A stretch of 12,984 nt of DNA, taken from IMG/VR virus record IMGVR_UViG_2859799533_000002. The stretch is one strand, 5' to 3'. Positions 7,363 through 12,984 of the stretch are shown one piece after another (positions within the stretch are counted from its first letter, which is position 1; each line of letters begins with the position of its first letter). This DNA comes from a virus. Its lineage: Duplodnaviria > Heunggongvirae > Uroviricota > Caudoviricetes. Position numbers and translations under genes: made by a program. The notes under the pieces are model-generated. The model saw only the letters and a list, made by a program, of their open reading frames with translations. It was not told where the DNA came from and made no database searches.

Positions 7363-8147
7363 GTTGGAGTCATTACCGAAAATCTCAATGTATTCCCGTA
7401 TTACTGAGATGGCTTCATCCCGGTTATTAAAACGATAGTGGCTCAGGCTCTCATTTTTCAGCGTTCCCCAGAAGCTTTCCATCGGAGCGTTGTCGTAACA
7501 GTGACCTTTACGCGACATTGATGTTTTCAGACCAGACTGCTCCTGTATGACCCGGTAATCGTATGCGCAGTACTGTGAACCTCGATCAGAGTGGTGGATT
7601 AGCCCGGCAGGTGGGCGCTGGCTCCTGAGCGCCATAAACAGGGCTTTACCTGTCAGCTCTTTTGTCATGCGCTCTCCCATGGCGTAGCCGACAATTTCGC
7701 ACGTATAAACATCTTTGATGCCAGCGAGGTACAACCATCCCTCCTGTGTGGCAACATACGTCAGGTACGCCACCCAGACCTGATTTGGTGCTGTAGGAGC
7801 GAACGTCTGGTTCAGCAGATTTGGCGCAACTGGCAGATTGTGGTTCGGGTTCGTAGTCGCTCTGAACTTGCGTTTCTGCTTACAGCGTAGCCTTAGCTCC
7901 TTACGAAGACGTGCCAGTCGGTCACGACCAACGATGATGCCATTCTCTGCCAGCTCCGTCTGGAGCCGCCGGGTTCCATATGTTTCGCGAGTGCGGATAT
8001 GTGCCACCTTAATCTCCAGTTTTAGCCGCTCATCACTTTGTTTTCTGTCTGAGGGTTCATGCTGTACCCAGTTGTAATAACCGCTCCTGGATACACCAAA
8101 TACCTGACACATCGCTTCAATGGGAAATTGTTGTCGCCATTGTTCGA

Positions 8148-8450
8148 TTAACGCGTATTTTTCAGCGACTCCTGTGCAAAATACGCTGTTGCTTTTTTTA
8201 ATATATCTCGCTCAAGGCGAGCTTCATTTAACGCCTTACGCAGTTGCAGAATTTCAGATTCCAGTTCAGCCACCGTGCGGGAACCAGGAGTACCGAGCCC
8301 TTTTCTGGCGGCGGTAACCCATTGTCCTAAAGTGCCTTCAGGAAGGGATAATCGGGAAGCGCCTTCACTGATCGAAAGTTGATTTTCAAGAACCGTTCTG
8401 ACAGCTTCGGCTTTGAACTCTTTAGAGTAACGTTGGTTTTTTCTGCTCAT
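8148..8450 (-). CDS. IS600 OrfA (100 aa, helix-turn-helix)
   Basis: MSRKNQRYSKEFKAEAVRTVLENQLSISEGASRLSLPEGTLGQWV...; identical to the OrfA of the second IS600 copy at 12682-12984. Confidence 0.85.
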   Translation of the reverse strand: MSRKNQRYSKEFKAEAVRTVLENQLSISEGASRLSLPEGTLGQWVTAARKGLGTPGSRTVAELESEILQLRKALNEARLERDILKKATAYFAQESLKNTR

Positions 8451-8638
8451 TATTAGCTCCTTCTGATGCCATTCTATTTCAGGAAGGAGTGTCCGTTAAA
8501 CTCAGGCTACCTCATATGTCGGGCGCTCATCCGGTATAAGGGATCGCGTTCTTAATATCAATGAAACCGCTGATGTATGGTCTGGTAATGCTGCCAACTT
8601 ACTGATTTAGTGTATGATGGTGTTTTTGAGGTGCTCCA

Positions 8639-8914
8639 GTGGCTTCTGTTTCTATCAGCTGTCCCTCCTGTTCAGCTACTGACGGGGTGGTGCGTAACGG
8701 CAAAAGCACTGCCGGACATCAGCGCTATCTCTGCTCTCACTGCCGTAAAACATGGCAACTGCAGTTCACTTACACCGCTTCTCAACCCGGTACGCACCAG
8801 AAAATTATTGATATGGCCATGAATGGCGTTGGATGCCGGGCAACTGCACGCATTATGGGCGTTAGCCTCAACACGATTTTACGTCACTTAAAAAACTCAG
8901 GCCGCAGTCGGTAA
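8639..8914 (+). CDS. insA: IS1 InsA (canonical isoform)
   Basis: [40 protein letters not shown]...; identical to InsA at 9836-10111. Confidence 0.9.
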
Positions 8915-8940
8915 CCTCGCGCATACAACCGGGCAGTGAT

Positions 8941-9336
8941 GTGATTGTCTGCGCTGAAATGGACGAACAGTGGGGCTACGTCGGTGCTAAATCACGTCAG
9001 CGCTGGCTGTTTTACGCGTATGACAGGATACGGAGGACGGTTGTGGCGCACGTCTTCGGTGAACGCACTCTGGCCACACTGGAGCGTCTTCTGAGCCTGC
9101 TGTCGGCCTTTGAGGTCGTGGTATGGATGACGGATGGCTGGCCGCTGTATGAATCACGCCTGAAGGGAAAGCTGCACGTTATCAGCAAGCGTTACACTCA
9201 GCGCATTGAGCGACATAATCTGAATCTGAGACAACATCTGGCAAGGCTGGGACGGAAGTCACTGTCGTTCTCAAAATCGGTGGAGCTGCATGACAAGGTC
9301 ATCGGGCATTATCTGAACATAAAACACTATCAGTAA
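8941..9336 (+). CDS. insB: IS1 InsB frame (InsAB' by frameshift)
   Basis: InsB homolog; the ORF-track start is downstream of the frameshift site, as expected for an InsAB' fusion. Confidence 0.85.
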
Positions 9337-9835
9337 GTTGGAGTCATTACCGTATGGTCTTATGCTTACGGTAATAATTTGCTAACTCTGTCATCAATAT
9401 ATAACCGAAGAATAATGGTTATCTGCCTGGTGTTTGGTTGCCGACAGCAGGAGGCGAGGCTATCCACCTGGGACGAATGGGATTTAAAAAACTGGGTATG
9501 GACAGTCCCAAAAGAGCACAGCAAAAACAAGGAGGCTATAGTAAGGCCTGTTCCTGACGGAATAAAACAATGGATCGTTAATCTTTACGCAGAAACAAAA
9601 AATCGCGGTTATGTTGTCGGTTGTGCTTTGCAAAGGGCGACAATAACAGGGGCTGCAAACAGAATATGCAGGCGTCTTGGTCATGATACTAATGGCTTGT
9701 GGTGCATACATGATTTCAGGCGCACATTTTCCACTACGCTTAATGATATGGGGGCGGATCCTTATATTGTCGAACTTCTTGGTGATGCTGCCAACTTACT
9801 GATTTAGTGTATGATGGTGTTTTTGAGGTGCTCCA

Positions 9836-10111
9836 GTGGCTTCTGTTTCTATCAGCTGTCCCTCCTGTTCAGCTACTGACGGGGTGGTGCGTAACGGCAA
9901 AAGCACTGCCGGACATCAGCGCTATCTCTGCTCTCACTGCCGTAAAACATGGCAACTGCAGTTCACTTACACCGCTTCTCAACCCGGTACGCACCAGAAA
10001 ATTATTGATATGGCCATGAATGGCGTTGGATGCCGGGCAACTGCACGCATTATGGGCGTTAGCCTCAACACGATTTTACGTCACTTAAAAAACTCAGGCC
10101 GCAGTCGGTAA
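9836..10111 (+). CDS. insA: IS1 InsA
   Basis: 91 aa, canonical InsA sequence. Confidence 0.9.
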
Positions 10112-10155
10112 CCTCGCGCATACAGCCGGGCAGTGACGTCATCGTCTGCGCGGAA

Positions 10156-10533
10156 ATGGACGAACAGTGGGGATACGTCGGGGCTAAATCGCGCCAGCGC
10201 TGGCTGTTTTACGCGTATGACAGGCTCCGGAAGACGGTTGTTGCGCACGTATTCGGTGAACGCACTATGGCGACGCTGGGGCGTCTTATGAGCTTGCTGT
10301 CACCCTTTGACGTGGTGATATGGATGACGGATGGCTGGCCACTGTATGAATCCCGCCTGAAGGGAAAGCTGCACGTAATCAGCAAGCGATATACGCAGCG
10401 AATTGAGCGGCATAACCTGAATCTGAGGCAGCACCTGGCACGGCTGGGACGGAAGTCGCTGTCGTTCTCAAAATCGGTGGAGCTGCATGACAAAGTCATC
10501 GGGCATTATCTGAACATAAAACACTATCAATAA
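10156..10533 (+). CDS. insB: IS1 InsB frame (InsAB' by frameshift)
   Basis: Canonical InsB sequence (..[39 protein letters not shown]..). Confidence 0.85.
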
Positions 10534-10711
10534 GTTGGAGTCATTACCGAACTTCTTTTAGGTCATAAAGTGAAAGGGGTTGCTGGTGTTTACAATAAAA
10601 GCAGGCATATAAAGAAAAAACTTGAGGTGCTTAATATGTGGGTTAATTACCTTAATACGATAGCAGGATTTAACAACAACGTTATCGAGCTTAATAAAGA
10701 GGTGGTGTGAT

Positions 10712-10969
10712 ATGGCAATTTATTCTCTTGTTGATGAAAACGATTTGCGCACAATGAAGGACATTGATCGGTTCATTCGTGAAAAAGAGTGCATAGCACT
10801 TACCACGCTGGCAAACTCAACACGCTGGAAAATGGAGCAGGCAGGTAAATTCCCGCGACGTATCAAGATCGGTGAACGTGCTGCAGGGTATCGACTTTCA
10901 GAGGTTCAGGCATGGATCCGTGGTGAGTGGCATCCTGGATGGAAACCTGGAAAAACAAAACAGCAATAA
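10712..10969 (+). CDS. alpA: AlpA-family phage transcriptional regulator / excisionase-like HTH protein
   Basis: 85 aa; ...LTTLANSTRWKMEQAGKFPRRIKIGERAAGYRLSEVQAWIRG matches the AlpA pattern (short HTH, GKFP, basic, W-R-x-SEV-x-AW); GAGG ribosome-binding site; starts 1 bp after the integrase stop. Confidence 0.8.
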   Translation: MAIYSLVDENDLRTMKDIDRFIREKECIALTTLANSTRWKMEQAGKFPRRIKIGERAAGYRLSEVQAWIRGEWHPGWKPGKTKQQ

Positions 10970-10982
10970 CCAGTAAATAATG

Positions 10983-11005
10983 CCCCTCATCACGAGGGGT
11001 TTTTT
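10983..11005 (+). terminator. Intrinsic terminator after alpA
   Basis: CCCCTC-ATCAC-GAGGGG hairpin followed by TTTTTTGTCT. Confidence 0.6.
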
Positions 11006-11025
11006 GTCTATAAGGTAAAAACGCG

Positions 11026-11604
11026 ATGAATAAAAATATTGCCGTGACGGGCAAGGGGTACGCTCGTCCAGTGAAAAAATTCTGCGATATTCGTGATCTC
11101 GTCGTTCTGCGCTTTGATAGTGTGAACGTTCGTGTGGTGTATCTGAACGGCGATCCGTGGTTTGTTGCAAAAGATGTTTGTGCTGCGCTGGAACTAACCA
11201 ATTCGCGTACGGCGTTGCAGATGCTTGATGATGATGAAAAGGGAGTAAATTTAACTTACACCCCAGGAGGAAATCAGAATATGAGAATTATCTCTGAGTC
11301 AGGTTTCTACAAACTAATAGCCCGCAGCCGCAAAGCAACGACGCCTGGCATATTTGCTCATCGTTTCAGTAACTGGGTATTCAGAAATGTGATACCAGGT
11401 ATCAGAAAAACGGGGACTTATGGTATCCCGTGGGGTGCATTACAGGATTTTTCCCGCCGTAAAGAGCAATATCAAATAAGTGCCAGCGAGAAGGGGAGGG
11501 AGCTACAGGCATGTAAGCGCAAAAAGCGTGAGCAGGAGGAAGAAGAAAAAACGCTGATACGTGAATATCAGCCTGAGTTTTACTTTGGTAACCGCATTCA
11601 GTGA
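11026..11604 (+). CDS. BRO-N domain protein (prophage antirepressor-like)
   Basis: 192 aa; N-terminal ...VVYLNGDPWFVAKDVCAALELTN...DDDEKG...IISESGFYKLIARSRKATTPGIFAHRFSNWVFRNVIPGIRKTGTY matches the BRO-N pattern; charged, Glu-rich C-terminus. Confidence 0.8.
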   Translation: MNKNIAVTGKGYARPVKKFCDIRDLVVLRFDSVNVRVVYLNGDPWFVAKDVCAALELTNSRTALQMLDDDEKGVNLTYTPGGNQNMRIISESGFYKLIARSRKATTPGIFAHRFSNWVFRNVIPGIRKTGTYGIPWGALQDFSRRKEQYQISASEKGRELQACKRKKREQEEEEKTLIREYQPEFYFGNRIQ

Positions 11605-12433: not shown

Positions 12434-12625
12434 ATGGTTGCTGTAAATCATATACCACACCTTGTACACACACAAACGGCCTTTGTGTGGCGTTTTCTGG
12501 CACTGAGTGCCGGAGAATCTCAAATCATCCACGTAACCGCCTGGACGGAACGCGAAGCGCGTAGCCGTTGCCCGTCCGGTTGTGTTGCTGTATTCGCTGC
12601 AAAAATCCGCCAGGGAGTGAGGTAG
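12434..12625 (+). CDS. Small rightward ORF of unknown function; native C-terminus replaced by IS600 after codon 61
   Basis: AGGAG 5 nt upstream of the ATG at 12434; MVAVNHIPHLVHTQTAFVWRFLALSAGESQIIHVTAWTEREARSRCPSGCVAVFAAKIRQG then VR* supplied by the IS600 terminus at 12618; it is the only well-initiated part of the otherwise implausible 354-aa ORF-track ORF. Confidence 0.35.
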   Translation: MVAVNHIPHLVHTQTAFVWRFLALSAGESQIIHVTAWTEREARSRCPSGCVAVFAAKIRQGVR

Positions 12626-12984
12626 CCTGAGTTTAACGGACACTCCTTCCTGAAATAGAATGGCATCAGAAGGAGCTAATAATGAGCAGAAAAAACCAAC
12701 GTTACTCTAAAGAGTTCAAAGCCGAAGCTGTCAGAACGGTTCTTGAAAATCAACTTTCGATCAGTGAAGGCGCTTCCCGATTATCCCTTCCTGAAGGCAC
12801 TTTAGGACAATGGGTTACCGCCGCCAGAAAAGGGCTCGGTACTCCTGGTTCCCGCACGGTGGCTGAACTGGAATCTGAAATTCTGCAACTGCGTAAGGCG
12901 TTAAATGAAGCTCGCCTTGAGCGAGATATATTAAAAAAAGCAACAGCGTATTTTGCACAGGAGTCGCTGAAAAATACGCGTTAA
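12618..12984 (+). mobile_element. IS600 second copy, left end (continues beyond the window)
   Basis: TGAGGTAGCCTGAGTTTAACGGACACTCCTTCCTGAAATAGAATGGCATCAGAAGGAGCTAATAATG is the reverse complement of the 8450-8514 terminus of the first copy. Confidence 0.9.
12682..12984 (+). CDS. IS600 OrfA (100 aa)
   Basis: Identical protein to the ORF at 8148-8450; its stop codon is the last triplet of the window. Confidence 0.9.
   Translation: MSRKNQRYSKEFKAEAVRTVLENQLSISEGASRLSLPEGTLGQWVTAARKGLGTPGSRTVAELESEILQLRKALNEARLERDILKKATAYFAQESLKNTR

Follow-up and report, generated by a model that had tools for sequence, protein, structure and literature searches.

An intact mosaic IS1 element, very probably formed by gene conversion between two isoforms, in an IS-rich prophage remnant

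The locus and its insertion sequences

The stretch of DNA analysed here (the window, 12,984 bp) lies in the 4.68-Mb chromosome CP026866.1 of assembly GCA_002949955.1, in which positions 1011490-1032305 hold a match to it at 100% identity; part of this region is locus L026 (reversed). The host is probably a Shigella, and likely S. boydii, since the window locus is 99.9% identical to CP026795.1 and the adjacent plasmid accessions CP026796 and CP026798 are of S. boydii. CP026795.1 is a complete genome (L006) and is referred to below as the sister genome. When the whole window was compared with PLSDB and with complete E. coli genomes, only its IS pieces were matched and no contiguous locus was found.

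What remains of a P4-like satellite prophage makes up the non-IS DNA of the window, with an integrase, an AlpA, a Bro-N and an Icd-like gene; the P4-like satellite element is intact in E. coli CFSAN029787. Within 13 kb there are four IS1 copies, all in one orientation, two inverted IS600 and one IS2, the latter recognised by its NCBIfam matches (IS2 TnpA and TnpB). The IS600 ends at 8148-8514 and 12618-12984 are inverted, 367 nt long and 100% complementary, and they bracket the prophage remnant, while the 5' 600 bp of the integrase gene are absent left of IS600. This missing part of the gene and the inverted IS600 ends suggest that an IS600-mediated inversion or deletion may have shaped the locus. 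The features discussed in the following are collected in Table 1, where the IS1 copies are named after their first position and V and C denote the variant and the canonical-type isoform, respectively.

Table 1. Features of the locus in window positions, followed by the related chimeras in positions of the IS1 element
Feature	Positions	Strand	Remarks
c1336, disrupted V-type IS1	1336-3307	+	split by nested IS2
c1336, IS1 positions 1-618	1336-1953		
IS2 nested in c1336	1954-3284		
c1336, right tip of IS1	3285-3307		
c6610, V-type IS1	6610-7377	+	nested in IS600; 8-bp target duplication GAAAATCT; not in the sister genome (L006)
P4-like satellite integrase gene fragment, target of c8584	8515-8583, continuing 9352-9780 and from 10549 onwards	+	
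Target duplication of c8584, left copy	8575-8583		9 bp, GTATGGTCT
c8584, mosaic IS1, intact	8584-9351	+	768 bp
V-type left tip of c8584	8584-8622	+	
C (IS1SD-type) patch of c8584	8623-8876	+	26/26 diagnostic sites, including 281A at 8864
insA of c8584	8639-8914	+	91 aa
Identity block holding the right junction	8877-8927	+	51 bp, same in both isoforms
A6C -1 frameshift motif TTAAAAAAC	8888-8896	+	
V-type right segment of c8584	8928-9351	+	41/41 diagnostic sites; most of insB and the right inverted repeat
Target duplication of c8584, right copy	9352-9360		9 bp, GTATGGTCT
c9781, C (IS1SD-type) IS1	9781-10548	+	9-bp target duplication GAACTTCTT at 9772-9780 and 10549-10557; common to sister assemblies
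Chimera of the same two isoforms	C 4-363 / V 372-573 / C 597-750		one site common to four genomes (L027, L029, L034, L035)
Chimera of the same two isoforms	C 4-414 / V 445-750		
Chimera of the same two isoforms	C / V 445-538 / C		
Chimera of the same two isoforms	C 4-293 / V 345-538 / C 561-750		

Many complete E. coli genomes carry IS1 copies that match the V isoform, represented by c6610, at 100%, among them loci L020-L024, and 3,928 records match it at 99% or more; by name, we take it to be IS1F-like. The C isoform, represented by c9781, had been called canonical in a preliminary description of the locus. It is more exactly the Shigella isoform that NCBI names IS1SD, with 99.6% identity to IS1A-type copies. 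The InsAB' product of c9781 is P0002, annotated as 'IS1SD family', and the only PLSDB matches at 100% to the full-length element are plasmids of S. boydii and S. dysenteriae. Since both isoforms are multicopy and widespread, the partners of a conversion need not be the copies in the window, and such an event may predate the insertion at this site.

The same description had placed the copies at 1336 and 6610 in one isoform. Both are V-type, although c1336 is no simple copy, as it contains the nested IS2 and lacks IS1 positions 619-751; it is a dead V-type element. The counterpart of c1336 in the sister genome has its IS2 behind IS1 position 751, flanked by a duplication of 5 bp (ATCAG), so that the absence of 619-751 from c1336 is an additional deletion of 133 bp with respect to that genome. 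The deletion abuts the left end of IS2 and its joint shows TCAG microhomology. The other V-type copy, c6610, interrupts a minus-strand IS600 (6472-8514), and therefore the IS600 orfB frame runs into the end of IS1 (ORF 7297-8112). CP026866.1 is the single assembly in which this configuration is recorded, and c6610 is absent from CP026795.1. The C-type copy c9781 lies 429 bp downstream of c8584, in the same integrase gene and equally oriented. Directly downstream of c9781, CP026795.1 lacks about 660 bp (10550-11209) that the window and E. coli locus L005 both have; the sister strain seems to have undergone a deletion next to IS1.

Structure and insertion site of c8584

Members of the IS1 family are about 768 bp long, have imperfect terminal inverted repeats of about 23 bp (GGTRATG...) and generate target duplications of 8-9 bp. 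All the features of the family that can be tested are found in c8584. It has the length of an IS1 and terminal inverted repeats, beginning with GGTAATGCTGCCAAC and ending with GGAGTCATTACC, and it is flanked by a 9-bp duplication. Its insA and insB' are joined by a predicted -1 frameshift at an A6C motif; the insB frame is open to 9336, and the predicted InsAB' fusion frame is open as well, with 232 aa. A protein identical to this fusion (P0003) carries PF03811, PF12759 and PF03400 in the gene tables, corresponding to the InsA zinc-ribbon, HTH and IS1 DDE domains.

The 9-mer duplicated around c8584 occurs only once, at 7001-7009, in locus L005, where the integrase gene is uninterrupted, and likewise once in the empty sites of loci L006-L015. 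The open reading frame formed by the integrase fragment running into c9781 is present on 19 contigs. In all ten of those listed, namely the complete genome CP026795.1 and nine draft assemblies, c9781 is present and the site of c8584 is empty, with 8583 joined to 9352 via one 9-mer. As judged from the 9-bp duplication and these empty sites, c8584 sits here as the product of a simple transposition, and its insertion is new to this strain. With c6610 absent from CP026795.1 and its position in IS600 recorded for CP026866.1 only, both c8584 and c6610 are to be regarded as recent strain-specific insertions, and c9781 and c1336 as older ones.

In order to resolve the composition of c8584, the four IS1 copies were aligned with MAFFT and the three full 768-bp copies (c6610, c8584 and c9781) were compared site by site. 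Of the 768 sites, 68 (8.9%) distinguish V (c6610) from C (c9781), and with respect to these c8584 falls into three blocks: at IS position 4 (window 8587) it has the V-type base, A, as in GGTAATG; at the 26 sites from 40 to 293 it is always C-type; and at the 41 sites from 345 to 750 it is always V-type. Not a single base of c8584 matches neither parent. Read against whole elements, there are no differences from C over positions 5-344, including the IS1SD-specific A at position 281 (281A), and none from V over positions 1-39 and 294-768. Thus, c8584 is distinguished from IS1SD by position 4 and 41 sites from 345 to 750, and from V by 26 sites at positions 40-293. Of the C(68,26) = 4.4e18 ways in which the labels can be arranged, 68 have no more than three runs, which gives P = 1.6e-17.

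The two junctions lie in stretches that V and C share. The left one is inside an identity block of 35 bp (IS positions 5-39, window 8588-8622), and the right one is located between 8876 and 8928, in the block that contains the frameshift motif TTAAAAAAC. These are two of the five longest V/C identity blocks, which is where the joints of a homology-dependent exchange are expected. The left junction is supported by a single site, position 4; since the chance that one private mutation mimics the other parent at a diagnostic site is only about 3%, i.e. (68/768) x (1/3), this position is read as a true V-type tip.

These results bear out the preliminary description of c8584 as an element with canonical-type insA, variant-type insB and the variant first bases, which had set the downstream switch between about 8876 and 8928 around the frameshift window: the blocks match at all 68 sites, the limits of the switch are the same, and the protein motifs that it quoted are present. 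Differences scattered evenly along the element would have spoken against its proposal of recombination or gene conversion between IS1 copies; they fall in blocks instead. The proposal has to be amended in that there are two junctions around a patch (V-C-V) and not a single switch. Homologous recombination leaves contiguous parental blocks that meet in sequence common to both parents, which is the pattern seen here (V at 1 site, C at 26 and V at 41), and c8584 is best read as a V backbone with a C patch of 254-340 bp over insA, that is, as a conversion tract rather than a single crossover.

The IS1SD-specific 281A (window 8864 and 10061) causes the change G76S in InsA and, ahead of the frameshift site, introduces a TAG into the insB frame. 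Due to this TAG, the InsB that gene callers predict is shortened. The TAG lies in the upstream part of the insB frame that is not used and does not affect the InsAB' fusion.

Searches for the mosaic and related chimeras

Neither the 5,426 complete E. coli genomes that were searched nor PLSDB contained the exact 768-bp mosaic; their best matches (99.0-99.2%) were IS1X2-like elements. Likewise, the exact 100 nt across the right junction of c8584 gave 0 matches in the GTDB representative genomes. With the 107-nt left end of the element one match was obtained among these genomes, an IS1 contig of a 'Streptomyces' assembly. This contig (NZ_JBNGGG010000148.1, 'Streptomyces sp. UG1') has 1,090 bp and a coverage of 1.9x, and consists mostly of an enterobacterial IS1 with another mosaic pattern; it is probably a contamination of the Streptomyces assembly. 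Nor was a second copy of the exact mosaic found at 10 Shigella loci encoding an identical InsAB', the scope of the search for the mosaic being genomes other than the source and, of CP026866.1, the window.

The 131-aa and 97-aa InsB gene calls were considered as markers specific for the mosaic and rejected, as they are also produced for ordinary V-type copies. Look-ups by these calls returned mostly pure V elements or unrelated mosaics.

The InsAB' protein of c8584 (WP_237161093.1, P0003) was found on 16 contigs. At least four other exact chimeras of IS1SD and V are present in chromosomes of S. boydii and S. dysenteriae, each of them with 0 private changes and with other breakpoints than c8584 (Table 1). 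The elements at L027, L029, L034, L035, L032, L033 and L036 have the same two parents and encode the same InsAB' as c8584, from which the sibling chimeras differ at 10-25 positions; L036 has the 293|345 junction in common with it. The siblings have a C backbone, mostly with V patches (C-V-C or C-V), whereas c8584 shows the reverse arrangement, V-C-V. Further IS1 mosaics were met in other look-ups. Taken together, the sequences indicate that exchange between V and IS1SD is frequent and proceeds in both directions.

At least five different IS1SD/V DNA mosaics (c8584 and those at L027-L036) encode the one protein WP_237161093.1, because most of the V/C diagnostic differences leave InsAB' unchanged. 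Typing of insertion sequences at the protein level therefore hides mosaic diversity and should be used with caution.

Near uvrD, the mosaic IS1 copies of two genomes (L028 and L030) agree in their left flank but not in their right flank, their 3' patterns diverge slightly, and there is no target duplication in either. This indicates that later IS1-IS1 crossovers may have rearranged that site.

Origin of the mosaic and comparison with known IS1 elements

We consider it very probable that c8584 is a real, intact recombinant IS1, in which the insA stretch of a V backbone was replaced by that of IS1SD through non-reciprocal conversion and whose insertion is new at this site. In the mechanism that we propose, non-reciprocal homologous recombination (gene conversion), presumably RecA-dependent, would take place between non-allelic IS1 copies and replace 254-340 bp over insA, and both joints would fall within perfectly identical sequence (35 bp at the left tip, 51 bp enclosing the frameshift motif). 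Since the patch carries 281A, which is missing from the IS1X2-type mosaics, the exchange would have occurred in a genome holding IS1SD, i.e. in this Shigella group.

With regard to timing, a V-type element might have been inserted first and then converted in situ, with c9781 or another IS1SD copy as the donor. We give this order of events about an even chance and favour it slightly over the transposition of a mosaic formed beforehand. It is favoured because the exact mosaic was found neither in the E. coli genomes nor in PLSDB and its junction not in the GTDB representatives, because each distinct pattern among the sampled Shigella chimeras occurs at one site only, and because c9781, which could have supplied an identical patch, is a direct repeat at a distance of 429 bp.

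Alternatively, the chimera could have arisen at another Shigella locus or in an ancestor and then have transposed whole, without participation of the neighbouring copies in the window. This is a serious contender, to which we assign a probability somewhat short of even. The very recent insertion of c8584, with its clean 9-bp duplication, leaves little time for a second event in situ, and as both parental isoforms are multicopy, conversion is possible anywhere. Mosaic IS1 elements can evidently move: IS1X2 spreads by transposition, with about 99% identity in many replicons, and the mosaic of the L018/L041 type occupies no fewer than seven sites and recurs many times within one genome. Against transposition of a finished mosaic stands the failure to detect a second exact copy in the E. 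coli genomes, PLSDB, the GTDB representatives and the 10 Shigella InsAB' loci, a result that applies to genomes other than the source genome.

It is also conceivable, although improbable in our view, that the exchange was a selected swapping of modules, in which the InsA regulator and DNA-binding module was exchanged with respect to the InsB catalytic module and the element ends; the gain could be, for example, that the element is no longer trans-repressed by InsA from resident copies. Several independent chimeras do have a junction within the 51 bp that surround the frameshift motif, namely c8584, L036 and the IS1X2 relatives L002 and L003. Selection of this kind is not required, however, since junctions are also found in other long identity blocks, roughly as homology-dependent recombination predicts.

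A false chimera, generated in assembly or polishing when reads of different IS1 isoforms are mixed in the consensus, is very unlikely. The region is repeat-dense, with its four IS1, IS2 and two IS600 in 13 kb, and the configuration is known from one assembly only and was read from the assembly consensus. Yet mis-polishing usually scatters the mixed sites, while here there is one clean block of 26 sites with joints in identity blocks, and the InsAB' frame of c8584 stays open. Moreover, analogous exact chimeras occur at one common site in four independent assemblies (L027, L029, L034 and L035). Independent point mutations or selection-driven convergence have a practically negligible probability, since 26 consecutive changes to the state of the other isoform and none elsewhere in 768 bp would be needed (P ~1.6e-17), and a G-to-A mutation is conceivable only for the left switch at position 4, with the chance of about 3% calculated above.

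Gene conversion thus remains the preferred reading, and c8584 provides a clean and fully phased example of it between IS copies that have diverged by about 9%, in an IS-saturated Shigella genome, with both parental types within 3.2 kb of the chimera and an empty-site control from related strains.

IS1X2, an isoform so named in NCBI annotation, is close to c8584. It is a 768-bp element (e.g. L001, in the chromosome of E. coli HL15) with an IS1A/IS1SD-like insA half and a V-type insB half, as in c8584; it is widespread in E. coli and Klebsiella and is the closest match to c8584 in E. coli genomes and plasmids (99.0-99.2%). In its relatives L002 and L003 the switch falls in the same 294-344 block as in c8584, whereas in L001 it lies earlier, between 261 and 281. 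IS1X2-type elements differ from c8584 at 6-9 positions, including 4, 223 and 281: IS1X2 has G at position 4 and no 281A, and c8584 has A at position 4 together with 281A. In addition, private substitutions of the IS1X2 type are missing from c8584, namely 265C, present in 4/4 elements, and 127C/741G/764C or 262C, present in some. An assignment of c8584 to IS1X2 was rejected on the basis of these private substitutions and the breakpoints, and the comparison points to an independent recombinant outside the IS1X2 lineage.

Mosaic IS1 elements are common and have been described before, and c8584 is a new allele from a well-known process; it leaves the knowledge of IS1 evolution unchanged, and its value is that of an illustration. 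Lawrence, Ochman and Hartl are said to have described in 1992 (Genetics 131:9-20) that the IS1 homologues of enteric bacteria are mosaic, which they reportedly attributed to multiple recombination and horizontal transfer, the elements being compared across species. Unlike in that cross-species comparison, both parents and the chimera are found here within 3.2 kb on one chromosome.
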